From the NCBI GenBank assembly GCA_030018795.1, contig JASEHA010000001.1, positions 1 to 57,225 on the forward strand: a stretch of DNA of 57,225 bases, given 5' to 3'. Below, piece after piece: positions 1-57,225 of the stretch. The number at the start of each line of letters is the position of its first letter. The stretch's first letter is position 1. A program made the position numbers and the translations under genes. The stretch is from a bacterium (lineage in GTDB: Bacteria > UBA9089 > CG2-30-40-21). A model generated the notes under the pieces. The model did not search any database and was not told the origin of the DNA. It saw only the letters and a program-made list of their open reading frames with translations.

Positions 1-3000
1 GTTTTGTTTGGGACAAAGGGAACAATTACCTCTACTACTACAGATTTCTTAGGTTCATTTACTACTAACTTTACAATTAATACACAAAAATATGGAACAA
101 CCACTGTTCTGGCTATGGGAATAGTAAGCAATGGAACAGCTACTCAAGGTTTTGGGATTCGTGCATATATTATCATTACCCCTGTTTGCGGGACAGTAGG
201 TTCATGGATAACTGTTACTGGTAATGGGTTTGCAGTATTGGCTGAAACAAATGGAGAGCCTCTAAAGATTGATTTTGGGACAAGACAGGATATTTTCAAC
301 AGTCCTCCTCAATCGTCATCGAAAGATGGTACCTTTACCCTTTCCTTTACCATAGATACTCAATCTGCAGGGACAACAACAGTAAGAGCTACAAGTAAGA
401 TAACTACAGCAGCCACGAATTTTACTCTCTTCACCATCACCCCTAACCTCTATCTTGTTTCACCAACTACTGGCACGATTGGCTCAACTGTAACCATTTA
501 TGGTTCTGGATACTCTGCCGGTGAGGTGATACAGGTTGACTTTGGGACAAATGGGTTCAGGAATAGTGGGACAAAGTCAGCCTCAACCTATGGGACATTT
601 ACCGCATCCTTTACCGTTGATACCCAGCCTGCTGGAATAACAACAATACGGGCAACAAGCGAAATATCAGGGGTGAATAATGTTAATTACTTTGGGATAA
701 GACCGAATATTACTTATCGAAGCGGGCCGGGGAATGGATATACAAGGGTTGGGCAATCAATAACTATAGCTGGTAATGGGTTTGCAGCTGGAGAACAGGT
801 AGCAATTGGTTTTGGTAACAAAACAACAATTACTACAACCACAGCAGATAGCACCACAGGTTCATTTACCGCTACCTTCCAGATTGATACTCAAAAATAT
901 GCAACAACCACGATTACTGCCAGAGGAATGATCAGTGGGTTTAGTGTTAGTGGTGGTGATAAGGGCTGGTTCTTTATTCAACAGCAGATTGCTACCCCTG
1001 CTCCTAATTATGGATCAGTGGGGACAATAATTGCCGTTACTGGTGATGGATATGGTGAAAACGAGGCTATCAGACTGGCGTTTGGGACAAATCAAACGAT
1101 TGCATGGGGATATGCCTCATCCAATGGCTCGTTTGCAACAACATTTACCATTAACACTCAAAAATATGGATCAACAGATATTGAAGCCATTGGTAGTGTT
1201 ACCGGGTCAACCTTAAATAGTAAGAAACAGGTGAGTATCAAGGCAAAATTATATCTGGTAACCCCTAATACTGGCACAGTAGGAACATCGGTGATGGTTT
1301 ATGGCAATGGTTTTGCAACAGGTACTGCTCGAATTGATTTTGGAACAACCGTAAGCAGGGTGGAAAATGTTCCTGTAAGTGATTATGGGACATTGGCAAC
1401 ATCTTTTACCATTGATACTCAATCGTTTGGGACTACAACTATTAATGCTTATCATGATGTAGGTCTTAGTCGGCAGGTAGATAATCCTATTGGCTTTAAG
1501 ATAACAGGGAATATCCTGTATGTCTCCCCATTGAGCGGGACGATTGGCAGTGCAGTTGAGATTGCTGGTAACGGGTTTGGAGTGTCAAAAACAGTAACCA
1601 TCTTGTTTGGAACAAAGAGCAATATCAAGCAATGCAGCTCAGAGGTTAATGGCTCATGGACAACCAGCTTTACGGTTGATACTCAATCGTTTGGGACAAC
1701 AACCATCAGTGCCAGTGATCCATCTACAGCCTTTGCTGCAACATATACCTATTTAATTACTGCTAAATTGAATGAGCCGCAGCCTGGCTCAGGAACAGTT
1801 GGAACAACCATTACCCTGACAGGCTATGGCTATGGGGCAGGCGAGAGTGTAAATGTTAACTTTGGACTGACATCACCAATCAAGACAGTCCCTGCAAGCA
1901 ACTCTGGCTCATTCAGCACCACCTTTACAGTGAATGTACAAAAATATGGAACAACAACTATAACGGCTGCTGGTGCAAAGGGTTCATTTACCCAAACCTT
2001 TATCATCAATCCCAATATTGTCTCAATTCTGCCGACAGATGGTCCCATAGATACCATTGTTACGGTTAAAGGTAATGGGTTTGGAGCAACAGAGCCTGTG
2101 AGGATTGATTTTGGAACACGGCAAGGAATTGCTACAGTAACAGCTGCCTCTGATAATGGTTCATTTACTATTACATTTACAGTAGATGATCAGCCAAGAG
2201 GGCAGGTAACCATTGTTGCTGTAGGGCTAAATACCAATGGGAGTTCTATGAAGTTTTTTGATATTAAAGCTGGGCTTAAATCTATGACGCCAGTAAGAGG
2301 AACGATTGGGACAGTGATATTGATTGAGGGTGCTGGATATACTGAGAATACTGGGGGTACTGGAATTATTCGTGTTGATTTTGGGACTACCATGTCCATT
2401 GCTACTGCAACATTAACTGATGGGGGGACATTCAGTATAAGCTTTACTACTGATGTTCAACCTGCAGGGACAACTACAGTCATGGCTACAGAGGTAGGGG
2501 CATCAACCAATTCCGGCTTCAAGTTGTTTGATGTTCAGGCAAATATTGTTACAGTCACACCCAGCAGCGGCTCTGTGGGCACGATTGTTACTGTGTATGG
2601 AAATGGCTATGGCAGTACTGAGTCTGTAAGGATAGAGTTTGGATCAAATTTAAACATTATCACAGTAACGAGCATATATACTGGCTCATTTACAGCTACA
2701 TTTACTGTTGATAAACAGCCATATGGAACAACAACCATTAAGGCTATTGGTTCGCCGTCAGGCGAGCAGGCTGTGTCTGTGTTTAATATCATGCCGGGTG
2801 TTATTAGCGTAAGTCCAAATAGTGGCACAGTTGGAATTAGTGTAACAGTGGTTGCTGATGGATTTTTGGCTAATGAGGAGATTTGTGTCTATTTTGGGAC
2901 AGATTTACAAACCATTCAAATTTCTGGTCAAGCAGCGGCAGAAGGTTCATTCACTGCTAATTTTGCTATAACTACTCAGCCAGCAGGCAGTACTACTGTA

Positions 3001-6000
3001 GAGGTGAGGGCTGCTGTAGAAGCAACAAGGAAGGCATGGAAATACTTTGATATTATGCCAAATCTGACCTATGTTGATCCAATCTCTGGTACGGTTGGGA
3101 GTAGTGTAGTTATCGAGGGTAATGGGTTTGGTAATGAACAAGTAAGGCTATCATTTGGAACTACAGTAACTATGACTACTGTTAATGCATCAAATGGGGT
3201 TATTTATACACCATTTGATGTCAACACCCAGCCCTATGGCACGGCAACAATAGTTGGTTATGGATTGAATACACAGCGAACTACTGCACCATGGTTTTAT
3301 AAGATAACACAGGATGTTTATGTGGCTCCGACTTCAGGCACAGTGGGAACAATTATCAATATTACTGGCACAGGCTATTATAAGACAGAGACAATAAAGG
3401 TTGATTTTGGGACACATCCGAGCATTGTTACTGGCGTGAGCACGAATGCGGATGGTATGTTTATAGCTAACTTTACCATTAATACTCAGAGCTTTGGAAC
3501 AACGACCGTGAAGGCTGCTGGTTGGACATCCGGGCTTATCAAGACAACGATGCTTGCCATTCAGCCTCAGATTTATCCTATCATGCCAACCAAGGGCACG
3601 GTTGGCTTAAGGGTTACGGTTCATGCGGATGGCTATCCGGCGGGTGAAGTAATTCGTCTCAGGTTTGGTGTAACCGGGACAGTAAGCATAACCACACCAG
3701 CAGATATTACAGCCGATGAAACAGGTTCATTTACAGCTATGTTTACCATTGATACTCAGAGCTTTGGGACAAAAAGTATTTCAGCCTCAAGCGTTATAAC
3801 CGCTTGTGTAGCTGAAAATATTTTTGTTATTGAGCCGCATATCTGGTATTTTTCACCAACAATAGGGAGTGTGGGCACAATTGTTGAGATCAAGGGTGAT
3901 GGATATGTTGAGTCAGAATTGGTTCGAATTGATTTTGGGACAACACAAAGTATCACAGAGGCACAAGCATTACCAACAGGTGCCTTTAGCACTACCTTTA
4001 CCATTGATACCCAGCTCTATGGTACAACAACCGTAACTGCATGGGGCACAACTAATGGGCATGGGACAAGGACAACATTCTTTATTACCTCCAATATCTA
4101 CTCAACAAGCCCAACAAGTGGAACAATAGGGACATGGGTAAATATTATTGGGTGTGGGTATGGCAAATCAGAGACGATTGAGGTTGTCTTTGGAACAAAG
4201 GGGACGATTACTGCCAGTTCAAGTGATAGTGGTGGCAGATTTACCGCATCGTTTACAGTGAATACTCAGCCGCATGCAGAGCCAGGATATTATACACTGA
4301 TTAAGGGGTATGGAACAGCAAGCAGCCAGATGGCACAGAGTAACTTTACTATTATACCAAAGGTTATCTCAATTACACCTGTTTGGGGAACAGTAGGAAC
4401 AATAATTACTGCTGTTGGTAATGGGTTTAGCTCATCAAAGACAAGCATTAATATGCAATTTGGATCAAATACCTCTTCCCTGCCCAAAGCATCTTCCAGT
4501 ATAGATGGTACATTTACCATATCCTTTACTGTTGATACGCAAATAGCAGGCTCAAACACAGTCAATGCTAATGATCCAAATGTAGGGTGGGCAGTACCCA
4601 ATTATTTCAGGATAGTTGCCCAGATTACCAGTATTACCCCAACAAGGGGAACGGTTGGTAACACAGTAAGTGTTTATGGCAATGGCTATGGTGCCAATGA
4701 ATTGGTAGAGGTTAGCTTTGGTGATTATGCAACAATAGCTGCAGCAACCTCTAATGGTATTGGTCAGTTTACGACAAGCTTTGTGGTTAATAGTCAGCAA
4801 TATGGGACAACAACTATTATCGGTGTTGGTACATCTACCAGTGAGCAAGGGACATTTACCTTCTTTATTATTCCGCGAATAGATGTGCTGTCACCCAACA
4901 ATGGGTTTGTTGGCAGTCAGATTATGATGAATGGCTGTGGCTATGAATCAATGGCAGATGTCAGGGTTGCCTTTGGGCTGACACCAATCATAGCTAATGG
5001 AACATCAAGTGGTAAGGGCACGTTTACAATTACATTTACCATTGACAGCCAGCCATATGGCAGTAGAACGGTTACTGTGTATCAAACTGATGATACAAAG
5101 AATGCATCCAATCAGGTATTTATCAAGTCAAAGATAATTGAGGTAACCCCGAATTCAGCAACCGTTGGCACAACCATTGCTATTAGCGGGACTGGTTATG
5201 GTGTATCCGAGAATGTCTATCTTAGTTTTGGGAATATGCCAGTGGTTACCAGTTACAAGACATCTGATTATGGAACCTTTACCGGCAACTTTGTGGTCAA
5301 TACCCAGGTTTATGGAACAACCACTGTTCGGATATATCCATTACCAGCGTCTGATTTAAGGCATGAATACACAACATACTTGAACATAAGGGGTGCTATC
5401 TATCGGGTGGAGCCAACCTCTGGCGGTGTTGGCAGGGCAGTAACCATTTGGGGTAATGGCTTTGGAAATGCAGAGTCTGTATCAATCAAGTTTGGAACAC
5501 ATGAAAGTATAACCTCTATTACTACTGCAGGTGATGGTGGATTCTCAGCCAGCTGGACAGTTGACACTCAAGGGTTTGGAACCACAAGCATCATAGCCAG
5601 AGGTGGACAAACCAACGAAACAGCAGAGAATATCTTTATCATTAAAGGCTCTATTGTCTATCTTAGTCCAACAATTGGTACAGTAGGAACAGATGTTGTC
5701 ATTAAGGGTGATGGGTTTGGGTCATCTGAGACTGTTCGTATCAGTTTGGGCAAGAATACGACTATTACTACTACTGCCTCAAATCAAGCTGGCTCATGGA
5801 CAACAAGCTTTACCATAGATACCCAATCCTATGGGACAAAGACGGTTCAGGCTTATGGGGTTGTTTCTGAAACATCAGATACAGTAGGCTTAAGGATTCT
5901 GCCAAAGATTATTGATGTTACGCCAACAACAGGGACAATAGGGACATTGGTTGCAGTTTCTGGTAATGGCTACATTGCCTCAATTGGGATAGGGATAAAT

Positions 6001-9000
6001 ATCGGGCTGACAATAAATATTGGTTTGACACCATTTGATGCCAAAGCAGATGAAGATGGAACATTCTCGGTAACATTTAATATAGATGATGAACCGTTTG
6101 GCAGTAACACAGTTACAGTTTTAAGTAAAGATAGTCTGGTTAAAGATACAAGGTGTTTTGTGGTTAAACCCATGGTCAGTGTAACACCTGTAACTGGTAC
6201 GGTTGGAGCGTCTATCACGGTTTCTGGTAATGGCTATGCTCCAACAGAGGTAATTCAAATAGACTTTGGGACAAGGGTAGAATACGCGACAACATCAACC
6301 ATTGCTTCAGGTGATCCGTCTGCGTTCCGCGGCTCGTGGCAAAGGGTAATGGCAGTAGATGTTCAGCCATATGGAACAACAACTATTCTGGCAACAGGGC
6401 TGGGCTCAGGTGGCATAGAAAGGTGTATCTTTAATATCAGGCAAAGATTAACAGCGATTACACCGTCTTACGGGACAGTTGGCAGCACTGTAACCGTGAA
6501 TGGCAATGGCTATGCAGCGTTAGAAAATATCAGAATAGGGTTTGGCAAAACGACAAGCATTTACAGCATACAATCTTATGATAATGGTGTGTTTCAGGCA
6601 GTCTTTACAGTTGATACCCAGCATGATGGTCCTAAGACAGTGCTTGCAAGCGGGCTGGGCTCTGGTTCTGATACGACTACTTATACCATTATGCCACATA
6701 TTGTTTCTGTCTTACCATTTACCGGGACAGTGGGCACAAGCATAACAGTTATTGGGGATGGGTTCAGGACATCAAGCAATATTCGTATTGATTTCGGGGA
6801 TAAAGAAGGTATCAGGACACTTGTTACCTCTTTTGACGGTACATTTACCACAAACTTTACCGTGGACATTCAGTCACAGGGGACAAAAACTATATGGGCG
6901 ATGTATGGGGCTGAGGTTGGCACCATCAGCAGTTTTGTTATTAATCCAAACATTACTGAAATTACACCGGCTGCAGGAATAGTTGGCTCAAGTGTAACAG
7001 TTACAGGTAATGGCTATTCTCCAAGCACGGTGTCCATTTACTTTGGGACAAATGCAGCCATGATTACAAATACAATTGCCAGTAGTGCCGGCACATTTAC
7101 CAAAGACTTTGTGATTAATACTCAAGCCTACGGCACTACTACAGTAATAGCAAAGGATATGGCTTCAGGGAAGCAGTCTATAGGCAGCCTTACCATTAAA
7201 TCAAACATCTATGAGCTGACACCAACCTCAGGGACAGTAGGCAGTTCAGTAACCATCCGGGGGACAGGGTATATTGGTGAGGTATATAAGCAGATAAGGA
7301 TTGATTTTGGGAATACTCAAACTATTGTGAGTGATATATATACAGGAGCTGCTAATGGGACATTTAGTGCTGTATTTTTTGTCAATACTCAAGGGTATGG
7401 GACAACAACCATCAAGGCAACCTATATTAATGATGCCAACCAGACCGCAGAGAGGATTTTTGCTATTCAGCCTGTTATTTACAGGATTAGTCCGACATCA
7501 GGCACGATTGGGGCAGATGTGACTGTTTATGGGAATGGCTATGTAGCAAGCGATGTTGTTTCTATAGCATTTGGTTTGACATCAGGTATTGCTACAGCTA
7601 CGGTAGAGGCACAGGGTTCATTTACTGCCAGTTTTATGGTTAATACCCAGCCGCTTGGATTGACAACAATTACAGCCTCAGGGACAATGAATACCACAGC
7701 CAGCTTTATGTTCAGAATAGTGCCAAAGATTACACTGGTTAGCCCTGGTAATGGAACGGTGGGAACAATAGTTCAGGTTGAGGGTAATGGTTATCAGGCA
7801 AGTGAGCAGGTAACCATCAAGTTTGGAGCACAAAATGTGAGCTTAATAAATGCCTTTAGTGATGGCTCGTTTACCACTACATTTACAGTAACTACACAGA
7901 AATATGGGACAACAACGATTACTGCTACTGGTGGGACTTCAGGTGGGACAGCGACAGGCACCTTCTTTATCCTGCCTGAGGTTTATCAGGTTTCACCCAT
8001 ATCAGGCACAGTGGGCACATTGATTACGATTTCAGGCACAGGGTTTGGGGCAAACGGTACTGTCAGCATCAAGTTTGGTGGGACTGCAGGTATTGCTAAT
8101 AAAAAGGCGTCTGCTAACGGTTCGTGGACAACAACATTTACTATTAATGCTCAAAGTTTTGGCACCACAACTATTGTCGCATCTGATATAAGCATACCAG
8201 CAGCAACAGCCTCAAATATCTTGAGGATTTTGCCATATGTTACGATTACCCCAACAGCTGGGAGTGTGGGAACAACTGTGTTTATATCTGGTAATGGTTA
8301 TGGGAGTGTGGAAGGTGTTCATGTTGGGTTTGGAACAATCATCACGGCTACAACCATTACCTCAAATACAGATGGTTCATTTAGCGGCTTATTTGTGGTG
8401 GGTCTGCATACATACGGAACAACAACCATAACAGCTGCTGGCTTAAATACATCTGCTGCTGAAAAGACATGCTTTGATGTGGTCTCTGCCATTACCCTGA
8501 TTACACCGACTCAAGGCATAGTAACCACAGTAGTTACTATAGCTGGTAATGGCTTTGGGGCAAGTGAACAAATAACTATTGGCTTTGGGAATATGGCAGG
8601 TATAGCCCTGTGCTCAAGCGATGACTATGGTTCATTTACCACTATCTTTACTATAAATACACAAAGCTATGGGACAAAGTCTGTGTTTGCTACAGGTACT
8701 GTCTCGGGCGAGGTAGCTATAAGTGCATTTAAGATAATTGGCAGGTTCTATGGTGTTTCTCCAAATAAGGGAACAATTGGAACAGTGGTTACTATTAAGG
8801 GTGATGGATATCAGGCAAGTGAGCTATTGTATGTTGACTTTGGGCAGACAACAGATATTATTTCAACAGCCGTGTTTGCGGATGCAGAGGGCTCCTTTAC
8901 CTTTACCTTTACTGTAAACACTCAGGCACAGGGAACAACAAGTATTATTGTGAGGGCAACTCAATTTGGCAGCAATCAGAGTATAACCAATGTCTTTAAT

Positions 9001-12000
9001 ATTGAGCCGCATATTACTAATGTGGCTCCAACAGATGGCTTTGTTGGTGATTGGGTGACAATTACTGGTGATGGCTTTGGGGTGTCAGAGACAATAGGTG
9101 TCAAGTTTGGAACAACATCAGCCATTTCATTGATCAGCACGAGCGATAAAGGGACATTTACGGCTGCATGGACAGTTGATACTCAAGGGTATGGGACAAC
9201 GAGCATTGTTGCAGTTGGAGAGATAAGTGGTGTGAGCGACTGGGATGAGTTTGTAATTAAGGCAAAGATTACCAGTGTAACACCCAGTCAGGGGACAGTA
9301 GGAACGATTATTGTGGTTGATGGTAATGGATACAGGGCTTCTGAATGTGTAAAAATAAGCTTTGGCAATCATTCAACCATTACCACAGCTATTGCAAATG
9401 GCTCAGGTGTGTTTACAGCGTCCTTTATTATTGATACACAATCTTATGGGAATACCACTATTACTGCCATAGGTACTGGTTCTGGAGCAAGTTCATCTGG
9501 CAGCTTCAAGGTGCTCAGTGAGGTTCCCTGGATTAGTCCAACAATCGGGACAGTTGGAACAGTAGTTACTGTGCTTGGGACTGGTTATGCGGCTTCGGAA
9601 TGGATATCTATTAATTTTGGAACAACAGACGGTGGTGCAATAATAAATAAGCTTGGCACAACCTCTGTAAACGGCAGCTTCTCAGTAACATTTACGGTTA
9701 ATACCCAACCCTATGGAACAACTACAGTAAAGGCTTATTCTCATGATTATCCATCAACAAGGTATTTTGAGAGAGGCTTTGTTATCACATCAAGGATTCT
9801 TACTGTTACCCCGGATCAGGGGACAGTTGGGAAATTGGTAAGTGTTACTGGTAATGGTTTTGGGGCAGTAGAAGGGGTGAAGATTAAGTTTGGCAGTGAG
9901 GTTACGATTGCTATAATTACCTCTGGCAGTAATGGATTCTTTAGCGGCTTCTTTACAGTAAATACTCAGGGGTTTGGAACTAAGAGTGTTATAGCAAATG
10001 GGCTGCAAGATACAGCCAATCATACTGGTCAGGCTGAGTTTAAGATAAGGGGCAGGATGACTAATGTAACACCATTGTCTGGAACGGTTGGCTCAAGGGT
10101 TACGGTTAAGGGTGATGGCTATGGAAGTTATGAGGATATAGCTATTAAATTTGGTGAAACAACAAGCATTACGACTGCAAAGGCAGAGTTTGGCACAGGT
10201 ATATTTGCTATTGGCTTTACAGTTGACAGCCAGTGTTTGGGTACAAAGACCATTACCATCCTTGGGCTTGACTCAGGAGAAACAGCTACAGCAGCCAGCT
10301 TTACTATCAAACCTGAAATATGGAGTGTTAGTCCAACCAAGGGTTCGATTGGCACAGTCGTTATCCTGAAGATGACCGGCTATGGTCCAACAGAATTGAT
10401 AGCTATTAACTTTGGGAATATCTCAAATATTGGTTATAGTGATTATACCTCAAATAATGGTACTGCTTTGGCAACAATAACAACAACAACTCAACCCTAT
10501 GGCACAACTACGATTACAGCTATTGGCACTATTACTGGTGCCTCTGCTGCCAACAGATTTGTGGTCAGTCCAAACATTACTTTAGTTACACCCAAGCTGG
10601 GCAGTGTGGGCACATTGGTAAATGTTACCGGTGATGGCTATTGGGCAAGTGAGACGGTTACGCTTGAGTTCGGGACAGGCTCTACAAAGCTTACAAAACA
10701 GGGGACAGCTAGTCAGATGGGTATCTTTAACCTGACGTTTACGGTTAATACTCAGGTGTTTGGGACAAAGACAATAACAGTCTCAGGGACTACTACTGAT
10801 ACCCATAAGGCAGAGAACTATGACTTCAAGATACTACCCAGCATTATTGAGGTTACACCAGGGCAGGGGACAGTAGGGCAAATAATCACGGTTAAAGGAA
10901 ATGGCTATGCTTATGAAGCAATAACGATTGGATTTGGGACTAATGCTGCTATTCTTACTAACAAATGGGCAAATACAAATGGCACCTTTAGCTTTAACTT
11001 TACTGTAGATACTCAAAGATATGGTACGACAAGTGTGACGGCTGCCGGTGCAATCGCTGGTATGGCAACATCCACATTCTTTATCAAGACAAGCATTTAT
11101 TCCATTTCGCCGTCAGAGGGAACGGTAGGATCATTGTTGACTATTAATGGTAATGGGTTTGAGGCAGGCATAGAATTATCTATTCGCTTTGGTGTGCCGC
11201 TGTTGCAAAACCCTGGAACAACAACAATTGCCGGCAGCTTTGAACGATTCTTTACCTTAAATGAGCAGCCTGGCGGAACGGTTACAGTAAATGCAACTGC
11301 AGGAGAAGCAAAAGCAGATAGGGCATTCTATATTAAGGCAAATATCCATACAGTCAGCCCATCTGAGGGTTCTGTAGGAACGAGTGTAACGATTGTTGGT
11401 AATGGATATAAGGCATCTGACACCATATCAGTTAGTTTTGGGACAACACCCAATATAGGTACTGCCTCTGCATCAGGTGTGGCTAATGAAAGCGATGGTC
11501 TTGGTGGCACATTTACCTTAAGCTTTACCATTAATTCTCAACCATGTGGTTCAACCACTATTACGGCTAATGGACAAACACTTAATAGTGCTTTTAATAT
11601 ATTCTATATCAAGGCAACTATCTATAGCATGACACCAACAGCAGGGACAGTAGGGACATTGGTTAATATCTCTGGAAGCGGGTATAAAGCAACCGAGATG
11701 ATTAATATCAGCCTTGGCAGTCATCCTAATATCACTAATAAGGTTAGCGGTACAGATGGCCGGTTTACAGTCTCGTTTGAGATTGATACTCAACCCTTTG
11801 GCAGTACAACCATTAGTGCTATTGATGATGATGAGCCATCTATTGCTGGTTATGAACGATTTATCATTAGACCAGCTATCTATGCTACAACCCCGACCAT
11901 TGGGACGGTTGGCAATGTAGTAATCATTAATGGTAATGGCTTTGGGGCAGATGAGGGGATAATGGTTGGCTTTGGGACAACACCAACCATTACTGAGGTA

Positions 12001-48000: not shown

Positions 48001-51000
48001 AGGTCAAATATTATCACGGTTACGCCAACAAGGGCAACAGTAGGGACAATTATTACTGTAGCCGGTAATGGCTATGAAGCAGATGAGGATGTCAGGATTG
48101 ACTTTGGCTATACTCAAACCATTCAGCAAACATTAAGCAATGCCTCAGGTGAGTTTAATACCAGCTTTACACTTGATACTCAAGCCTATGGGACAACCAC
48201 GATAGTTGCTACTGGGGCTGTCTCTCGTGAGGTATCGCGGTCAGGGCTGTCTATCTATGCAAACATCACTATAGTTTCACCATCAAGGGGAACGGTTGGC
48301 ACAACAATTACTGTTTGTGGCAATGGTTATGGGGCAAGTGAGACCATAGCTATTGACCTTGGCTGGACAACGAGTAGAACAACAACGATTACAGATTATA
48401 CGGGCTATTTCTCAACCACCCTGACCATTAATGTCCAGCCATGCGGCACAACAATAGTAATGGCAAGGGGTATTGCTTCAGGTGAGACAGATAATGATAG
48501 TCTGGTTATTTTCTCCAACATCTATGAGGTTTCACCTGTTTGGGGTATGGTGGGTGAATTGGTTACCATCTATGCCGATGGCTTTGGTGCTAATGAACAG
48601 GTTGAGATAAACTTTGGGATTACACCAACCATTACTCAAGCAGCAACAGACTATAAGGGTGCGTTTACAGGTATATTTACGATTGATGTGCAGCCTGCTG
48701 GCTGGACAACGATTACAGCTTATGGAATGAATAGCCATGAGGTAGCAAGCAATAAGTATAGAATATCGGCCAAGATTACAGTATTGTCACCGTCACACGG
48801 TACAGTGGGAACGATTGTCAGGGTTGATGGTAATGCCTTTGCAGCTACAGACTCAGTCAAGATTGACTTTGGCTGGACAAAAGCGATTGTTAAGGCCAGC
48901 TGTAATGATGCGGGCGTATTCTCAATAACCTTTACCATTGATACTCAAATGGTTGGGACAAGAACTGTCATGGCTAACTCAACTAAGAATCTGGAGCTTT
49001 ATGCCTTCCAGATATTTACGATTGAGCCACATATTACACAGGTAACACCAAATGAAGGAACAGTAGGGACGTTAATTACAGTCAGGGGTGATGGCTATGC
49101 GGCTACAGAGACAATAAGGATAGACTTTGGATGGACAACGAGCAGAACCAGTGTGGTTTCAGACTATCGCGGAGGATTTGAAAAGACATTTACCATTAAT
49201 ATTCAGCCTTATGGTATAACCAATATCATTGCTACAGGTATGGATAGTAATGTAATGGATGAAGACAGCTTGCTTATCAAGGGTAATATTACCAGTATTG
49301 TGCCATCATTTGGTACGGTTGGCAGCAGTGTTATGGTAACTGGTGATGGGTTTACAATAGAGGAGAATATCCAGATTCTCTTCGGTTATGATGTCATAAC
49401 AGATACAAATACAAACTATCGAGGTGAGTTTACCGCATACTTTACGGTAAATACTCAGGCTGCAGGGACAACTACGGTTGAGGTAGCAGCCTTAATCTCA
49501 TCACAGGATCTGATTGGTGGGTTCTATATCAAGGGTAATGTCCTGACAATGACACCAATTGATGGGACAGTAGGAACAAATGTATCTATCAGTGGTAATG
49601 GCTATGGGGCAAATGAGGAGATAAGGATTAGCCTTGGTGAGACTATAACCAGGGGTATGGGTCTGGCAACAGATGCTGGTGTGTTTGAATTTAGCTTTAC
49701 CATTGATACCCAGCCAAGCGGTCCAAAGACAGTAACTGCTTATGGCATCAATTCAGGTGAGATAGATTCAACCAGGGTGTTTACCATTGTGCCAAAGATT
49801 GATAGCGTTACCCCTGCACAGGGCTCAGTTGGTTCTATAGTGAACGTCTATGGCAGCGGTTACTGGGCGAATGAGGGTATTCGTGTTGATTTTGGCAATT
49901 ATGTCAGTCGAGCGGTTGTTTCAACCGATAACAGCGGTGCTTTTGTGGCAGTATTTACTGTAGATACTCAAATCTATGGAGTAACAACCGTTGTGGCTGA
50001 AGGGACAGGCTCAACGATTCCAAGGTATAGCAGCTTCTTTATTCGCGGGAATGTTACCAGTGTATCACCCAACGAGGGTACCATTGGAACAATAGTAACC
50101 GTGCTTGGCAATGGCTATGGCTCAATAGAGGATATAAGCCTATACTTTGATGTTTATCCAGAGTCTGTTGTTAAGACAGATAATATCGGCAGCTTTAAGT
50201 CAGTCTTTGGTGTCAGGGCACAACCTGGTGGGACAAAGACAATTACTGCCCGTGGGGCAAATACAGCTGAGTTTAAGGCATCCACCTTCCTTGTTAAGGC
50301 TCGTATCATCATGATCAGTCCAGCAAGCGGAACTGTAGGCAGTTATGTTACCGCAGCTGGTGATGGCTATAATGCTACTGAGATGGTGAAGATAAATTTT
50401 GGTACAAAAGAGATGATTGTCTCTGTTCAGGCTGCTGCTGGTGTGTTTAGTGCTGTATTTACTATTGATACTCAAGGCTTTGGGACAACAACCATTCAGG
50501 CATTAGGGGTAAAGTCAGGGCTATCAGGTATTCAAAAGATTCTTATTACTCAAAGGGTTATACTTGTAACACCAAATAATGGTACGGTTGGCTCATCAGT
50601 TGAACTGAGGGGTAATGGCTATGGCTCAAGTGAAACCATATCTATTGGTTTTGGGACAACTGCAACCATTACCCAGGTAATAGCCGGGCAGAATGGGTTG
50701 TTTATAGCCGTGTTTACGACTACAGAGCAGTTCTTTGGTTCAAAGACCATAACCGCTTCAGGGCTTTCTACAGGGTGTGTTGATTATGGCTATTTTACCA
50801 TTATACCAAGGGTAGTTATTACACCATTGATGGGTACGATAGGAACAATGGTGGCTGTCAATGGTACAGGGTATCGCTCGATTGAGCGGGTAAGGGTTGA
50901 CTTTGGGATGTTAAAGCCTATAGCCACGGTTTGGACAAACAATGTTGGCAGCTTTGAGTCAGTCTTTGCGGTGGATACTCAAGGTTATGGAACGACAACC

Positions 51001-54000
51001 ATTATTGTTACAGGACTTGGTGCTAGTCCGATAAGGGTGGCTACCTGTATATTTAGTATTATGCCGCAAACATTTATCTCACCGCTTTCAGGGACAGTTG
51101 GACAGCTGGTGACTGTAAGCGGTAATGGTTGGGGTTATGTAGAGGGTGTCAGGGTTGACTTTGGGACAACTTCATCCATTATAGTTGCTATGACCAATGA
51201 CCGGGGGACATTTGCTACAACATTCAGTGTTGATGTCCAGTCGGCTGGCAAGACAACCATAACTGTAACTGGCGTGAACTCTAAGCAGGTGTTTGTCAAT
51301 AGCTTCTTGATAACCAGTAAGATTGCTGAGTATTCTCCAACTATGGGTACGATTGGGACAATGGTCAGCCTGATGGGTAATGGCTATTTGCCGAATGAGA
51401 CGATTGAGGTTGCCTTTGGCTGGACAAGAAGTATAACCATAGCTCAGGCAAATGCTCTGGGTGTGTTTAATACTGGGTTTACGGTTGATGTTCAGCCCTG
51501 CGGAAACAGAACGATTGTGGCTACAGGTTATGGATCAAACAATGTCAGTCGAGCAGCATTTAGTATTATACCGAACATTACCATGGTAACGCCTGCAGCT
51601 GGAACAGTAGGCTCAATGGTTTCTATAGCTGGTAATGGGTATGGTGTCAGTGAATTCATTGAGGTTATCTTTGGAACAAACAATGAGATACCGATATTTG
51701 AGTCAACAAGTGATGGCAGGTTTACAGCAGATTTTGTCGTTGATGCACAGCCAATGGGGCAGACAATAATCAGTGCTCTGGGCTTGAATTCAAACAGGTG
51801 TGCTACAAACAGCTTTACCATCACATCATTGATTGGTGTAATACCAGGTATAGGAACGGTTGGACAATCTATAGTGGTTTGGGGTACTGGTTATCCGGCA
51901 GGCGAGATTATCAATGTTGACTTTGGTCTAACCGATACGATTACTCCAAATATCCTTACTGGCAATAACGGTTCATTTGATACCTCGTTTATAGTTAATA
52001 CTCAAGTTTATGGGACTACTACGGTTAATGCAACCAGCATTCCGGGCAATGTATCTTGCCAGACAATGTTTACCATCCTGCCGCATATCAACTGGGTAAC
52101 ACCTGAGGCAGCAACGGTTGGGACGATTATTACCATTGCTGGCGATGGGTTTGTGGCAGGTGACAGTATAAATATTATCTTTGGAACAAATCCAGCGATT
52201 GTTGGGACAAATAGCAGGCAAGACGGCTCGTTTGTGGTTACATTTATTGTTGATGAGCAGGCTTATGGCAGTCGAACGATTACTGGTGTTGGTCAGGCAA
52301 CACCTGATAATGGTATTGGCTACCTGAAGATTATGCCGGAGATAGTCTCAATTGTTCCCACAATAGGTACGGTGGGAACAATAGTAACGGTTAAAGCCTC
52401 TGGTATGCCGGATAATGAATATTTGTGGATTGACTTTGGCTTAAGCCCGAATGTTCAGGGTCCAATTGCTCCGGTAGCTTATGGTACATTTACATCTGAG
52501 TTTGTGGTTGATACTCAAATCTCTGGGACAACAACCGTGACGGTCAGGGATACAGTGGTAGATGCTCATAAACAATTCTATATTGATGCAAAGATATACT
52601 CACCAGAGCCTATATCTGGGACAGTAGGAAGCACGGTTAGCATTCATGGTGATGGGTATGGGGCAAATGAGATTATTAGAATAGGCTTTGGAACAACGGT
52701 GTCTATCAATAGTGTTGAAACGACAGAATCTGGTACATTTGTGACCGTCTTTGTGGTTAATACTCAAGCAAGAGGGTTGACCACCATTACCGCTACAGGC
52801 TTAAATACCAATGAGGTTGATATCAGGACATTTACGATTGTCCCAGAGATTATTCTGGTTACACCGACAAGGGCAACAGTGGGAACAATTATCGAATTGA
52901 AGGGCAATGGGTTTGTTGGTAATTGTCCAATAAGGGTTGATCTGGGGACAACACAGGGTATTAAGGATACAAATACAGATGTAACTGGTTACTTCTCAAC
53001 AGCATTTACTGTGAATACTCAAGGGTATGGGACAACAAGCATTATAGCCGGCTCTGAAGCAGACAGCATGTTTATCTACAGTGAGATTATCAGGATAACG
53101 CCAACAAAGGCAACGGTTGGTACAGTGATTAGCATTGCCGGGACAGGATATGGTGCCAATGAGCTGGTTCTGGTTGACTTTGGTTGGACAAAACCAATAG
53201 CAACCATAACTGCATTGGCTACAGGGTATTTTGAGACAGTATTTACAATAAATATCCAGCCTGCTGGAACAACTACAGTGGTTATGACTGGTGTGGCAAG
53301 CAAGGAAACCAACCAGAAGACAGTGGTTATCTACTCTTCGTTCGTAAGTGTAACACCAGTATCAGGTACGGTAGGAACAATAGTCTCTGTTGCTGGTGAT
53401 GGCTATGCTGCCAGTGAGGCGGTGAGGATAGATGTTGGTGAAATAGCTTCAAGAACAACAACAATAAGCAGCTATGCTGGAGCGTTTGGGACACTGTTTA
53501 CGATTGATGTTCAGCCATATGGGACAACAAGCGTTGTGGCTGTGGGGATGAATAGTGGTGAGATGGCTAAGGATTGTTTCCGTATCGAGCCAAATATTAC
53601 CTCTATTGCTCCAGGGTCAGGTATTGTGACTAATAGTGTTACTGTTACCGGTAATGGCTATGGTGCCAGTGAATTGATAAGGGTTGACTTTGGGCAGACA
53701 ACAACGATTACCAGTGTCCAGTCCAGCAGGTGGGGCAGTTTTACAGCTGTGTTTACGGTTGACAAGCAGCCAACAGGTGATAAAACAATTACTGCCTGTG
53801 GAATATTATTTAATGAGAAGGCATATGAGCACTTCACGATTATCAGCGGACTATTCATCTCGCCAGGGATTGGCAGCGTTGGAACAATAGTTACAGTCAA
53901 TGGGAGTGGGTATGACAGTAATGAGCAGGTTCAAATAGATCTTGGCAAGACAAAAACTATTGCCAGCGTATCGGCAAATGCGTCAGGGTTGTTTACTACT

Positions 54001-57000
54001 ACCTTTACCATTGATTCGCAGGCCTATGGGACAACAAGCGTGTCAGCCACTGGCATGGTCAGCGGACAGGCATCAACAGTCAGGTTCTTTATTATGCCAG
54101 AGATAACTGGTCTGACACCAACTACTGGTACGGTGGGAACATTAGTAACCATAGATTGCACTGGTTATGGTTCTGGTGAGCAGGTAAGGCTTGATTTTGG
54201 CAAGACCATAACTCGTGTATTAAGTAATGCCAGCATTAATGGTACATTTACCATGATATTTACGGTTGATACTCAAGTTTATGGGACAAAGTCAATAGTG
54301 ATGACAGGGCTGGTTACAGGCAATGTATTATCAAGGGATTACCTCATTGTTTCTGAGATAGTCAGCGTAACACCAACCATAGGAAGTGTTGGCAAGCTGG
54401 TTACCATTGTAGGCAGTGGCTATGGTAATAATGAAAAGGTACAGATTGACTTTGGTCAGACAATGAATCTGGTGCAGCCATTAACAAGCAGTGATGGGAC
54501 ATTCAGCGTTACCTTTACGGTTGATGTTCAGGCATATGGGACAAAGACCATAACCGTTGAGGGTGTTGATACAAGGTATAGATTAACAAAGACATATTGT
54601 ATTATTCCAGAGATAATCAGTGTTGTGCCAAATACGGGTACAGTTGGGACAAATGTTATTATTACCTGCAGCGGTTATGGATCAGGTGAGCAGGTAAGGG
54701 TTGACTTTGGTAAGACATCCAGCATGGTTATTGGTGTTGCCAGCATAGACGGAACATTTACTACCAGCTGGACAATTGATAAGCAAGGTTATGGGACACA
54801 AAACATTGTTGCTCAGGGTGTTACGAGTAAGGCTCAGGCAGGAAATACCTTCTATATTACACCAAAGATACTTAATGTATCACCAACCATTGGTACGGTA
54901 GGAACTATAGTTACTGTAAATTGTGATGGTTATGGTGCAGATGAGGATGTAAGCCTTACACTTGGAAAGACTGTGGGTATTGTTATGGTTAGAGCCAGTA
55001 ATAACGGGACATTTACCACTACCTTTACCATTGATTCCCAGAGGTATGGGACGCAAGCCTTAATCATTGAGGGTGTAAATAGCAAACATCCAATGGAGAG
55101 CAGCGTTTATATTACCCCAGAGGTAGTGAGTGTATCACCAGTCAGTGGTACGGTTGGGACATTGGTTACAGTTAGCGGTACCGGCTATGGTGTGGGTGAG
55201 GTATTGCGTGTTGGTTTTGGCAAGACAATGACCATAGTCACCTGTATTGCCAGTATAGATGGAACATTTACCGCAGTATTTACGGTTGATACACAGGGTT
55301 ATGCAACTAAGACCATTACAATTGAGGGTGTCCAGATATTGCATCCAGCAGCCAATACCTTCTTTATCCTGCCGGAGATAGTTGGTATGACACCAACAAT
55401 TGGTACGGTAGGGACATTGGTGACAATTAATTGCACAGGCTATGGCTCAGGCGAGACGGTGCGTGTTGATATTGGAAAGACAGCAGGTATTGTGCTTCCT
55501 GTTGCCAGTAATGATGGAACATTTACGACAGTGTTTACCATTGATACTCAAAGCTATGCCACAAGGACGGTTACTGTTGAGGGTGTTACCACTGGTGATG
55601 CGAGAAAAGAGATATTCTATATTATACCAGAGATAGTAAGCGTTGTCCCGAATAAGGGCAGTGTCGGAACATTTGTGACAGTAATTGGCAGCGGTTATGG
55701 TGATACTGAAACCATAATGATAGACTTTGGTTTGACAGCAAATATAGTTTCTGGTGCATCGAGCAATGATGGTACCTTTAGTCTTGTATTTACCATTGAT
55801 ACTCAGAGATATGGGACAAAGACTATTACAGCCGAAGGTATTCAAACACAATATCCAGTAGCAAGGACATTCTGTGTTATACCGCAGATAATCAGTGTTA
55901 AGCCATCACTGGGCACAGTAGGAACATTGGTAACCATTGCCTGTAGCGGCTATGCAGGGCTGGAAAATGTCAGGGTTGACTTTGGACAGACAACAAGCAT
56001 GGTAATTGGGATTACAGATAAGGATGGAACGTTTACATCTGTGTTTATGGTAGATGTCCAGCGTTATGGTACAAGAAGTATTATTGGGACAGGATTGGAC
56101 AGCAAGGCTGTGGCAGAAAATACATTCTATATTACTCCAGAAATAATTAGTGTCACCCCATCGATGGGTACGGTAGGGACATTTGTAACAATCAGATGCA
56201 GCGGCTATGGCAGTAATGAGGCTGTCCAGGTTGGATTTGGCAAGACAGATAGTATTGCTACCGGTATATGTAGCATAGATGGTACATTTACCGTAGTGTT
56301 CACCATTGATACGCAGAGGTATGCGACAACGACCATAAGGGCAACAGGTGTTACCCATCAGCATACAGCGAATAATACATATTATATCCTGCCAGAGGTA
56401 ATTAGTGTTACACCAAAATCAGGGACAGTTGGCACAGTAGTTAATGTGAAATGCAGCGGCTATGGGGCAAATGAGGCTGTCAGGGTTGACTTTGGCAAGA
56501 CCATGAGTATGGTTATTGGTCAGACAACTGAGGATGGTACGTTTACATCTGAATTTGTTGTTGATGCTCAAAGTTATGGAACAACAAGCATACAGGCTAC
56601 CAGCGTTGTCAGTATAGATCAAACAGGTATACCGGTTACTCAATATAATTGGTTTAAGATTACAACAGCTATCTATATTACACCCATTGAGGGTACGGTA
56701 GGGACATATGTGGTTGTAAATGGAGATGGCTATGGAGCAAATGAGGATGTCCGGATTGACTTTGGAACAACAAAGAGTATTGTTATTGCCTATACCTCTG
56801 CTGATGGAACATTTACAACCATGTTTATGAGTAATCCACAGAGGGCAGGGATGTCAATGGTTACTGCAACAGGCTTGAATACGCAGCATCCATATGAAAG
56901 ATTCTTTGGAGTCAGTGCCAAGATCAGTCAGATTATACCTACACATGGAACGGTTGGGACAGTGGTTACGGTTATTGGTGATGGGTTTGGCGGTGAAGAG

Positions 57001-57225
57001 ATGGTCAGGATAGACTTTGGCTCTACCCAGACTATAACCCAGATACAGGCAAACATAGCCGGTACATTCTCAATAGGGTTTACAGTAAATACTCAAGGAT
57101 TTGGGACAACAACCATAACAGTCTATGGTCTTGAGAGTAAGCAGCAGCCGGCAAAGGTGTTTAAGATAGAGCCGCAGGTAGTCAGCGTTGAGCCGACAGC
57201 AGGCACGGTTGGCACAATAGTTACG
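1..57225 (+). CDS. Internal fragment (19,075 codons) of a giant ORF. It encodes a tandem-repeat, IPT/TIG-like Ig-fold (beta-sandwich) protein of surface-fibre or adhesin type. Both termini lie outside the window.
   Basis: Frame +1 reads through from nt 1 (GTT TTG TTT GGG ACA...) to nt 57225 (...GGC ACA ATA GTT ACG) with no stop seen in hand translation. The supplied ORF track has no frame +1 entry at all, whereas frames +2, +3 and all minus frames are chopped into pieces of 200 aa or less. Repeat-unit lengths are always multiples of 3. Conservation is at the amino-acid level with free synonymous variation. Confidence 0.9.
1249..1512 (+). repeat. Example of one canonical module (88 aa).
   Basis: Translation: LYLVTPNTGTVGTSVMVYGNGFATGTARIDFGTTVSRVENVPVSDYGTLATSFTIDTQSFGTTTINAYHDVGLSRQVDNPIGFKITGN. 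The next module starts at ATC CTG TAT GTC TCC CCA (1513). Confidence 0.85.
5995..6030 (+). repeat. In-frame 18-nt tandem micro-duplication (INIGLT x2) inside one aberrant module.
   Basis: ATA AAT ATC GGG CTG ACA (5995-6012) is followed by ATA AAT ATT GGT TTG ACA (6013-6030). The peptide is identical and three sites differ synonymously. It replaces the usual E-x-V-x-I-D-F-G-T strand (context GNGYIASIGIGINIGLTINIGLTPFDAKADEDGTFSVTFNIDDEPFG). Confidence 0.8.
11095..12906 (+). repeat. First copy of a 7-module tandem duplication inside H0.
   Basis: The module order is: IYSISP...FTLNEQPGG, then FYIKANIHTVSP...GGTF, then ..., then DNQSIGSNTITA, then EPRLTLIIP, then ITPNVHTVSP, then IIPAIHTVSP. The same order repeats immediately downstream. 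TTTACCTTAAATGAGCAG occurs at 11251 and again at 13060 (offset 1809). Confidence 0.75.
12907..14694 (+). repeat. Second copy of the 7-module tandem duplication inside H0.
   Basis: The module order is: IVLVTP...FTLNEQAGG, then FYVKANIHTLTP...GGTF, then ..., then NNQSIGSNTITA, then KPKITSITP, then ITPNVVSVSP, and so on. Gln-codon anchors at 12049 and 13843 are 1794 nt apart. Confidence 0.75.
15727..21117 (+). repeat. Super-repeat copy H1 (21 modules, 5391 nt).
   Basis: It starts VTGVMPAIGSVTT. It is colinear module by module with H2. Examples: ARMYQVSP / ARLWQVSP; FTIRHNLVYITP / FSILHNLTYVTP; TILPHITQVSP / NILPHIIKVSP; STIPQPYGTTTIT / TTIPQPYGSTTIT; PQPAGTTTIIAW / PQPAGTTTITAW; DNQSIGINTITAFGLNT...YTFRVMP / DSQSIGTNTITAYGLNT...YTFRVMP. 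Confidence 0.8.
21118..26547 (+). repeat. Super-repeat copy H2 (21 modules, 5430 nt).
   Basis: It starts (V)ITDMSPTIGSVTT. See H1 for the colinear anchors. Its modules 17-20 form the locally homogenised LPEIILVTP...HDD subfamily. Confidence 0.8.
25261..26283 (+). repeat. Four-module homogenised subfamily (255, 255, 258 and 255 nt).
   Basis: Unit starts are CTG CCA GAG ATA ATC (25261), TTG CCA GAG ATT ATC (25516), CTG CCC AAT ATT ATC (25771) and TTG CCC GAG ATT ATT (26029). All read ILP(E/N)II(L/T)VTPxxGTVG...AGNG(Y/F)...R(I/L)(E/T)FG...YGTTTI(T/G)(A/G)(H/T)D(D/G). Confidence 0.8.
26548..30168 (+). repeat. Super-repeat copy H3 (14 modules, 3621 nt; lacks modules 15-21).
   Basis: It starts (V)ITDMTPTNGSVST (DISSVITDM is shared with H2). 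Modules 1-14 are colinear with H2: FKITTGIFVTP...GYQADEPVRIGFG matches FRITTGIATISP...GYQADEPIRISFG, and long-loop modules 8, 11 and 12 are in register. It then jumps straight to the next module-1 type (TFGTVTT at 30184). Confidence 0.75.
30169..34857 (+). repeat. Super-repeat copy H4 (about 18 modules, 4689 nt; more diverged).
   Basis: It starts IILVSPTFGTVTT, then ARVWEVSP, then VTGHIVSVNP, then DDDTFYITTGVTSISP. Long-loop modules 8 (FSGWFNANDPQAYG), 11 and 12 are in register with H3 (offsets 3639 and 3654). The next module-1/2/3 set starts at about 34858 (IWTDGYAPNEP..., NIFIIKGRVLSVNP). Beyond about 36 kb I can no longer follow the colinearity by eye. Confidence 0.55.
42637..43374 (+). 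repeat. Three consecutive compact modules of exactly 246 nt (82 aa), clearly more similar to one another than to their neighbours.
   Basis: CCG CAG starts fall at 42637, 42883 and 43129. The three read PQVVSVEPTAGTVGTIVMIYSTGYVAGESVNIAFGTNASIQTAIAGTYGSWTTSWTVDVQAYGTTTITASGISVATNVFRIQ, then PQVVSVEPTAGTVGSVVAIYGTGYAAGDNITVAFGTNAGIQTAIAGQYGSFTTSWTIDVQAYGTTTITASGVSMATNVFSIQ, then PQIVSVLPASGSVGTIVTIYSTGYASGETVNIAFGTNANIQQAVAGQYGSWTASWTVDTQRYGTTTIIASGISVAMNVFYIE. They share near-identical runs such as ATTCAGACGGCAATTGCCGG. Confidence 0.9.
54094..56660 (+). repeat. Ten-module subfamily P(E/Q/K)(I/V)(I/V/L)(S/G/N)(V/M/L)xP...VxVDFGKT...(S/N)(I/N)DGTFT. Seven of the ten carry Cys in place of the Gly of GNGYG.
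   Basis: Unit starts are about 54094, 54352, 54604, 54859, 55117, 55372, 55624, 55882, 56137 and 56389. TGC/TGT codons occur in IDCTGYG (about 54156), ITCSGYG (about 54666), VNCDGYG (about 54921), INCTGYG (about 55431), IACSGYA (about 55941), IRCSGYG (about 56196) and VKCSGYG (about 56451). Confidence 0.8.
57172..57225 (+). repeat. Truncated start of another module of the 42.6-kb compact subfamily.
   Basis: CCGCAGGTAGTCAGCGTTGAGCCGACAGCAGGCACGGTTGGCACAATAGTTACG (PQVVSVEPTAGTVGTIVT) compares with CCGCAGGTGGTTAGTGTTGAGCCGACAGCAGGCACGGTTGGCAGC at 42883. There are only a few mismatches over the first 45 nt or so. Confidence 0.8.

Follow-up and report, generated by a model that had tools for sequence, protein, structure and literature searches.

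We conclude that the DNA analysed here, positions 1 to 57,225 of contig JASEHA010000001.1 (assembly GCA_030018795.1; this whole 57,225-nt stretch is referred to as the window), is probably an internal slice of one real giant gene of Candidatus Desantisbacteria, the product of which is likely exported and would serve as a micrometre-order rod in the manner of a stalk or tether. The analysis demonstrates the continuity of the reading frame, the anatomy and fold class of the encoded modules, the lineage, collinear orthologs and purifying selection, whereas export, the shape and length of the rod and its tether or adhesin role are inferred.

Results

A single reading frame spans the window

A six-frame scan detected no TAA, TAG or TGA in frame +1 over the 57,225 nt (19,075 codons), in agreement with a preliminary description of the window, and the remaining five frames contain 1,132, 1,516, 559, 725 and 1,972 stop codons with longest open stretches of 93, 84, 201, 122 and 56 codons, respectively. 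The limit of 200 aa that the preliminary description gave for open stretches in these other frames holds for nearly all of them, but frame -1 exceeds it by one codon. At the lowest stop rate of the other frames (559/19,075, 2.9%), the chance of 19,075 stop-free codons is ~e^-559. In frame +1, the G+C content (GC) at the first, second and third codon position is 44%, 50% and 35%, respectively, and thus the composition is that of coding DNA. Along the window the GC is even (41-46%) and the GC skew is positive throughout. Moreover, neither tRNA genes nor Rfam families were detected on either strand of the window. As previously described, the start of the gene is not included; it lies outside the window, which itself contains 231 Met codons. 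The encoded slice, with a mass of 1.99 MDa and a pI of 4.85, is acidic, and its abundant residues are Thr (16%), Gly (12%), Ile, Val and Ser.

Antisense frame -1 has the fewest stop codons (559) of the noncoding frames and contains the one open stretch of 201 codons. We take this openness to be a by-product of the codon bias on the sense strand and not a gene.

The encoded protein is an array of a single module

A hidden Markov model (HMM) of the repeated module was built from the window's own translation and used to segment the protein. The segmentation gave 221 complete modules of 79-97 aa (median 85) and one cut module at each end, matching the roughly 220 immunoglobulin (Ig)-like modules counted earlier. 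The modules cover 99.8% of the residues and abut without linkers, the largest unassigned gap being 7 aa; thus, there is no enzymatic or non-repeat domain in the window, as had also been stated. Pfam scans of the window protein and of single modules detected no dockerin, HEAT or TPR domains. Similarly, no transmembrane-like segment was found in the window; over 19 residues the hydropathy does not go beyond that of beta-strand cores, with a maximum of 1.75 in 'IVPQIVIVTPTIGTVGTIV'. The features of the window are as follows.

1-57225, forward strand: continuous open reading frame (ORF) of 19,075 codons, internal part of a giant gene (stop scan, collinear orthologous fragments)
1-87, forward strand: cut module, C-terminal 29 residues (matches the HMM at profile positions 58-85; in the HY793 ortholog L003 the array runs further upstream)
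88-57096, forward strand: 221 complete IPT/TIG-like Ig modules (HMM segmentation, Pfam TIG PF01833, AlphaFold)
25189-26211, forward strand: modules 98-101, second small block of similar modules (mean identity 56%)
26023-26796, forward strand: three consecutive modules modelled together (AlphaFold2 pLDDT 95.4, pTM 0.81, all-beta)
42571-43308, forward strand: modules 165-167, recent triplication of the 82-aa 'IYSTGY' subtype (66-69% protein identity among the three copies)
45235-57225, forward strand: segment aligned codon-wise with JAHIZN010000456.1 (aa 15,079-19,075, 47 modules)
54022-56571, forward strand: modules 210-219, more alike than the background (mean identity 50% vs 37%)
57097-57225, forward strand: cut module, N-terminal 43 residues (HMM; opens a cluster of recently duplicated 82-aa modules in the ortholog L001)

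In domain register, the consensus of the modules is ..I.P.I..VtPt.GTVGT.VTV.GnGYga.E.irIdFGtt..It...as..GtFtt.FTvDTQ.yGTTTItA.G..........F. Several Gly, one Pro and, which is unusual, one Gln are constant or almost constant, and besides Gly and Pro no residue of the module is as constant as this Gln. This Gln of the FTvDTQ motif is present in 215 of the 221 window modules and is E, K, R or H in the other six (for the motif see e.g. the aa 8737 region, 'FTLDTQGYG'); among 1,537 modules from all fragments it is found in 94%, the remaining 6% being gaps at alignment edges.

A Thr-Gln ester cross-link of the Cpe0147/VafE type was considered, but the sequence does not support it. In such domains, a conserved Thr or Ser acts as nucleophile and a Gln as electrophile, with a His (or Glu) as base and with buried acids (bioRxiv 10.1101/2025.03.26.645365); in the window modules no Thr/Ser column exceeds ~77%, no column contains more than 7.6% His, and the Gln is substituted in six modules.

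The modules resemble IPT/TIG domains

AlphaFold2 models of a single module and of three consecutive modules both have a pLDDT of 95.4, with seven strands per module, and the pTM is 0.82 for the single domain and 0.81 for the three domains; these values suggest that the domains pack in a defined way and are not strung like loose beads. Judging by the strand order of the model, the P..GTVG, FG and DTQ.YG loops would lie at one pole of the domain and GNGY at the other, an arrangement that would fit conserved domain-domain junctions. With the three-domain model as query, Foldseek matched the multi-Ig arrays SiiE, invasin, plexin, ICAM, fibronectin and Bap. With one domain, the matches were generic Ig-like sandwiches at TM-scores of 0.58-0.75, all with E-values of 4.7e-3 or weaker, and included neocarzinostatin (0.74), domain D of cyclodextrin glucanotransferase (CGTase; 22-25% identity), CARDB, PKD and the BIg domain of MpIBP.

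At the sequence level, Pfam TIG (PF01833) matches window aa 1-4,800 with 152.7 bits against a cut-off of 20.9, and 47 of 149 single modules match it at E<0.01 (best 1.3e-7). In an hmmscan against Pfam, the other three quarters of the protein (window 14401-57225, in pieces of 4,675-4,800 aa) matched no family, although they consist of the same modules; we take this to be an effect of the HMMER filter. Moreover, no NCBIfam model matches the modules and, with most pieces also lacking a Pfam family, this is probably why the fragments are annotated as 'hypothetical'. The sole match of the module profile in the PDB is CGTase domain D. We conclude from the profile matches and the models that the modules are best classified as a divergent IPT/TIG subfamily with an Ig-like (E-set) seven-stranded sandwich. 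They share with the IPT/TIG family, which includes CGTase domain D and the IPT domains of plexin and Met, the same ~85-aa seven-stranded Ig-like sandwich; however, two thirds of the single modules match this family with E-values worse than 0.01, the modules have a signature of their own (P..GTVGT, GNGY, FG, FTvDTQ.YGTTT), and their copy number is far above that in any described TIG protein.

The array is old and diverged, with a few young patches

At the protein level, pairs of modules are 37% identical in the median (5th-95th percentile 29-45%), irrespective of their distance (0.38 at lag 1, 0.37 at lag 100), and no super-repeat periodicity was found. At the DNA level, the median identity is 49%, with 36% at third codon positions, where chance identity is ~28% as estimated from the window's third-position base counts. 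The window contains no exact DNA repeat of at least 40 nt, and TRF reported a single array (42,637-43,349, period 246, 2.9 copies, 76% matches). Thus, the array is old and diverged except for a few young patches, and synonymous sites of paralogous modules are close to saturation. Near-identical adjacent domains tend to misfold together, and the low identity of neighbours would fit selection against this, resembling the situation in titin.

Only the 82-aa 'IYSTGY' subfamily appears to be duplicating still. Its site at 42571-43308 differs in copy number between genomes, with three copies in the window and at least nine in the HY792 ortholog (L002). The last 70 nt of the window (57156-57225) match the repeat at 42,867 at 54 of 70 positions, and in the orthologous contig JAHIZN010000456.1 (L001) there are two tandem arrays of the same short subtype with a 246-nt period, at 11,938-12,981 (4.2 copies) and at 14,117-15,487 (5.6 copies), that are locally up to 95% identical. 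The first of these arrays begins exactly at the position equivalent to the end of the window; thus, the window probably ends at an assembly break caused by near-identical repeats and not at a biological boundary. In L002, the 'IYSTGY' copies lie at about 8,350-10,800, on both sides of an N-gap at which the HY792 assembly breaks.

Collinear orthologs are found in independent Desantisbacteria assemblies

Protein searches returned dozens of 'partial' all-module proteins that fill their contigs, nearly all from metagenome-assembled genomes (MAGs) of Candidatus Desantisbacteria (locus-tag prefixes AAB296, AAB267, AAB110, COZ13, COZ71, COX18, HY792 and HY793). The lineage, which the preliminary description held could not be told, is therefore given by these relatives as Candidatus Desantisbacteria. 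Most of the fragments align with the window at paralog level (35-40% identity), and a subset is collinear with parts of it at 64-91%. The closest MAG is AAB296, fragment P0229 of which is 91% identical to the window. Fragments from at least nine independent assemblies (AAB296, AAB267, COZ13, COZ71, COX18, HY792, HY793, JAEMOG01 and JAHIZN01, together with ENA and JGI contigs) tile window aa 1-19,075 collinearly, and every junction in the window is spanned by orthologous fragments except for a ~2-aa point near aa 6,857-6,860.

Among the GTDB species genomes, one orthologous contig was found, L001 (55,768 bp, MAG 'Modern_marine.mb.176'), of which 22,010 nt were analysed, and all of these are open in one frame. 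Its first 4,003 codons correspond to window aa 15,079-19,075 with 76.9% aa and 78.6% nt identity. This 12-kb overlap contains five small in-frame indels, and 0 of its 47 modules have been gained or lost. Moreover, the ENA contig P0035 is 99.6% identical to part of L001; thus, this stretch of L001 has been assembled twice independently.

The HY793 contig L003 was considered as a possible chimera on the basis of an identity of 37% in the first BLAST; this was rejected when a targeted alignment gave 63.8% identity over window aa 1-1,288. At 9,554-9,597, L003 contains a frameshift at which about half a module (the GTVGT...GNGY part) is lost, and both sides of this position are collinear with the window. 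This is either a local assembly error or a real lesion and not a chimeric join.

Purifying selection acts on every module

Over 3,994 aligned codons of the window and L001, dS is 0.70, dN is 0.15 and dN/dS is 0.21. By column class, dN/dS rises from 0.065 where the modules are conserved through 0.26 at intermediate columns to 0.32 where they vary. Finally, omega calculated per module is 0.09-0.42 in all 46 testable modules. Thus, every module is maintained, including the residues that distinguish modules from each other.

The gene extends beyond both ends of the window

Past the end of the window, L001 is open and all-module for 3,333 aa (10 kb), and P0019 adds ~455 aa, to position +22,869. Upstream of the window, L003 continues for ~1,900 aa, all modules, and P0028 adds ~330 aa. 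On the basis of these extensions, the composite obtained by comparison with orthologs runs from about -2,236 to +22,869, corresponding to a gene of at least 25,105 aa with ~293 modules, of which the window itself provides 19,075 codons. This supports the earlier proposal that the gene is larger than the window: orthologous contigs contain modules only and no stop over a further ~2,200 aa on the upstream side and ~3,800 aa on the downstream side.

The fragments of the AAB296 MAG sum to ~26 thousand amino acids (kaa), of which ~10.6 kaa are outside the composite (summed from listed lengths and locus tags); therefore, more array exists, either in this gene or in a paralog. All-module groups from the same MAGs that are mutually orthologous and do not map to the composite, e.g. 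P0004/P0016/P0024/P0037/P0228 and P0001/P0010/P0023/P0154, may be further parts of the gene or a second giant gene. Some of the unmapped fragments contain a more divergent module subtype with weak matches to Big_6.

None of the ~100 all-module fragments has a non-module end; the candidate 'non-module tails' of P0067 and P0138 turned out to be only a variant module. An exhaustive profile search of 1.84 billion representatives identified 9,197 proteins with the module, and none among the matches listed is longer than 7,284 aa; thus, the full gene is not represented in this library. Metagenome scans for the source locus returned only five small unrelated loci (L007-L011).

The same module forms the stalk of smaller secreted proteins

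Complete proteins of the same lineage (P0022, P0043, P0047 and P0052) contain two to 14 copies of the same module subtype (70-88 bits per module). In these proteins the order is signal peptide, right-handed beta-helix/NosD head, modules, cohesin-like domains, and a type IX sorting domain, CHU_C or Por_Secre_tail (PF13585 or PF18962); CHU_C scores 29.0 and 32.2 bits in P0022 and P0052 against a cut-off of 27. In P0108 and P0116, which come from two MAGs labelled 'bacterium', a signal peptide is followed by a head composed of NHL-propeller/PD40 or M23-peptidase/Big/FG-GAP domains and then by a module array that runs off the contig. Altogether, these architectures suggest that in the Desantisbacteria lineage the module acts as an extracellular spacer that carries heads off the cell, and the giant gene would be the extreme case.

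A secretin gene (Secretin_N + Secretin) is located upstream of P0108 and P0116, directly in L012 and one gene apart in L015. Genes for an SLT lytic transglycosylase and for an S8 peptidase are also located nearby in L012.

L012, 8475-9773: secretin
L012, 10001-22532: head and array protein
L015, 2913-4307: secretin
L015, 5379-15141: head and array protein

A type II/IV-like secretion locus with gspD has been reported upstream of giant genes of Omnitrophota, and the placement of the secretin genes in L012 and L015 recalls this arrangement. Giant adhesins of the LapA, SiiE and MpIBP type, which use the type I secretion system (T1SS), have RTX nonapeptide repeats (GGxGxD) and a T1SS signal at the C-terminus, and their genes are adjacent to those for an ABC transporter, a membrane fusion protein and TolC. 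In the window protein itself, GGxGxD occurs 0 times in 19,075 aa. The two internal LP.TG strings, similar to the C-terminal LPXTG sorting signal of Gram-positive sortase-anchored adhesins, correspond to chance level.

Discussion

By comparison with orthologs, the gene has at least ~25,100 aa and ~293 modules, and in the window it encodes an unbroken chain of ~85-residue IPT/TIG Ig-like sandwiches without linkers. This array is ancient and is kept module by module through purifying selection, with few local recent duplications. We propose that the chain is exported and forms a semi-rigid extracellular rod or fibre of micrometre order. With a rise of 3.5-4.5 nm, which is usual for Ig-like domains, the window alone would correspond to ~0.8-1.0 µm and the composite to more than 1 µm. 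In the manner of a stalk or tether, such a rod may keep the cell, or a terminal head that has not yet been seen, apart from a partner cell, prey or particle. In smaller proteins of the lineage, two to 26 such modules appear to have this role and carry beta-helix, NHL-propeller, M23-peptidase, FG-GAP or cohesin domains. Because the same module is the stalk of smaller secreted proteins, an extracellular fibre or tether is the best-supported reading. The surface fibre, tether or adhesin suggested in the preliminary description is still arrived at by inference, but it gains indirect support from the finding that the same module forms stalks in proteins of the lineage with signal peptides and type IX C-terminal domains.

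Several points weigh against this reading. To our knowledge, the export of a protein of more than 2.5 MDa is unprecedented by any known route. Neither terminus was found in the window or its orthologs, and hence no signal peptide, anchor, secretion signal or head; the apparent gene ends in contigs of related MAGs are all N-gaps (L002, L005, L013, L014) or a frameshift (L003). In the smaller relatives, Por_Secre_tail scores 23.7-25.5 bits, just under the cut-off of 27, so that only CHU_C passes; moreover, these proteins with tails of the type IX secretion system are small paralogs of the giant gene, and the head-bearing P0108 and P0116 are not its orthologs (at most 51% identity). Finally, the product is known here from its sequence, and its expression and export are predictions.

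The same extracellular Ig array might instead be a coat, sheath, matrix or cell-cell connector and not a projecting tether with a head, which we regard as unlikely. More than 19,000 aa without any binding or enzymatic domain would be in keeping with a coat, the uniform purifying selection, which includes residues that differ among modules, would fit lateral packing contacts, and the closest MAG, in which all-module fragments amounting to at least ~10.6 kaa fall outside the composite, may encode several such proteins. However, neither a self-association motif nor a sign of multimerisation was found, and in the smaller relatives the modules clearly space an N-terminal head from a C-terminal sorting domain.

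It is quite improbable that the frame is translated but yields many shorter Ig-array pieces, either from a polyprotein or by proteolysis or internal initiation. Such products would avoid the difficulty of making and exporting a protein of more than 2.5 MDa, and contig L004 (JGI Ga0181613_1000757) of a related organism contains at 76-16861 tandem shorter all-module genes of 646+, 1,495, 1,130 and 3,718+ aa; this indicates either that the family also occurs as multi-gene arrays or that the contig contains sequencing errors. By contrast, there are no stops or frameshifts in the 57 kb of the window or in the 22 kb of its ortholog, the abutting modules are separated by neither a linker nor a conserved cleavage motif, and the strict conservation of module order and number from genome to genome would be unnecessary for separate products.

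We give hardly any credence to an assembly artefact, i.e. a chimeric or artificially expanded join of the repeats of shorter genes. The short-read MAGs are badly fragmented and contain N-gaps and the one frameshifted half-module junction (L003 9,554-9,597), and the window stops exactly where the near-identical 246-nt cluster of the ortholog begins. However, the window has no exact repeat of 40 nt and its modules have a median DNA identity of 49%, independent assemblies from different sites have the same order at nearly every junction, the ~2-aa point at aa 6,857-6,860 excepted, and the GC is uniform with a positive GC skew throughout. The diverged modules, the collinear independent assemblies and the purifying selection bear out the earlier view that the gene is real. 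Least probable of all, to the point of being negligible, is a decaying or selfishly expanding repeat without cell function: the small 82-aa subfamily duplicates locally and differs in copy number between genomes, but dN/dS is 0.21 overall and <0.42 in every module, no stop or frameshift is present, 0 of 47 modules were gained or lost at a dS of 0.7, and orthologs occur in many Desantisbacteria MAGs.

Returning to the exported rod, we tentatively raise a bolder version of it, which we think somewhat doubtful: with at least ~300 and perhaps over 400 consecutive Ig-like domains in one polypeptide, the protein may be the longest tandem Ig array in any organism, exceeding titin in the number of Ig-type domains. 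It would be conserved across Desantisbacteria and might function as a micrometre-scale 'fishing line' to a partner or prey, perhaps with export through a secretin-linked system akin to that beside the giant genes of Omnitrophota; the array total per genome may exceed 35,000 aa.

Giant tandem-Ig surface proteins and giant ORFs of uncultivated bacteria are already known; what is remarkable here is the number of domains, their uniformity, their age and the phylum. The preliminary description considered prokaryotic proteins above 10,000 aa as very rare, with a few examples. This is outdated, as 3,650 proteins of at least 10 kaa, with lengths of up to 147,155 aa, have been reported in Omnitrophota (bioRxiv 10.64898/2026.06.07.730766). 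With many such proteins known, the unusual part here is the architecture, with more than 221 copies of one domain only, and the phylum, and not length alone. The Omnitrophota giants (Archaeovorins, dockerin-type and tandem-repeat scaffolds) are likewise ORFs of more than 10 kaa in an uncultivated phylum (of the PVC superphylum, per one paper), their repeats are likewise ancient and diverged and not recent tandem DNA, and they have secretin/GspD-type genes upstream, as is the case for the relatives P0108 and P0116. However, these are mosaic proteins that combine many Pfam families, with enzymatic domains along with HEAT/TPR or dockerin/TSP3, and contain tens to hundreds of transmembrane helices, whereas the window encodes one domain and no transmembrane-like segment. 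The highest copy number of a single family reported in giant prokaryotic proteins is 41 (bioRxiv 10.1101/2023.11.21.568195, 10.64898/2026.06.07.730766), and the at least 221 copies of a single domain found here (~293 by orthologs) are about five-fold above this number. Neither of these two papers on Omnitrophota giant genes mentions Desantisbacteria or TIG domains, and of the titles and abstracts listed for papers in the searchable library that mention the phylum, none describes a giant gene in Desantisbacteria.

The giant tandem-Ig adhesins, i.e. Salmonella SiiE (5,559 aa, 53 BIg domains), Marinomonas MpIBP (~120 BIg domains), Pseudomonas LapA and the Mobiluncus mulieris adhesin (7,651 aa, 51 Ig-like domains; PMC10619420), with a known range of ~50-120 domains, likewise use a long Ig chain as an extender, and the Foldseek matches include SiiE (2yn3, 2yn5), the BIg domain of MpIBP (4kdv), invasin and Bap. 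By comparison, the Desantisbacteria protein is four to five times longer, or more. Moreover, its modules are of the TIG and not the Big/BIg family, the window lacks GGxGxD, and the modules are old and 37% identical, whereas the repeats of MpIBP and LapA are near-identical. Similarly, type IX cargo proteins with Ig-like stalks, such as Flavobacterium SprB, resemble the smaller same-module relatives in having a signal peptide and CHU_C/Por_Secre_tail, a likeness that rests on paralogs. The giant gene product would be several times larger than SprB. Finally, titin and twitchin likewise consist of hundreds of Ig-type domains with low identity between neighbours in a chain of micrometre order. This is an analogy only: lineage, domain family and cellular location are unrelated, and titin mixes Ig, Fn3, kinase and disordered springs in one chain, whereas the Desantisbacteria array is uniform.

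The array provides a natural experiment in the evolution of repeat proteins, with hundreds of homologous neighbours that are ~37% identical, each conserved between species, and one small subfamily that is duplicating. If the micrometre fibre is real, it would be an imageable clue to an uncultivated lifestyle (attachment, episymbiosis or predation), and it raises the question of how a protein of more than 2.5 MDa is exported. Public annotation does not show the gene, which in every Desantisbacteria MAG is shattered into dozens of contigs annotated as 'hypothetical protein, partial'. Two all-module fragments are labelled as other lineages, P0016 (HY772_03460) as Candidatus Woesearchaeota archaeon and P0127 (AB1589_43110) as Cyanobacteriota; as short fragments of a repeat gene carry little binning signal, their contigs are most likely misbinned. 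With the gene shattered and some of its pieces misbinned, estimates of completeness and gene content for Desantisbacteria are distorted.

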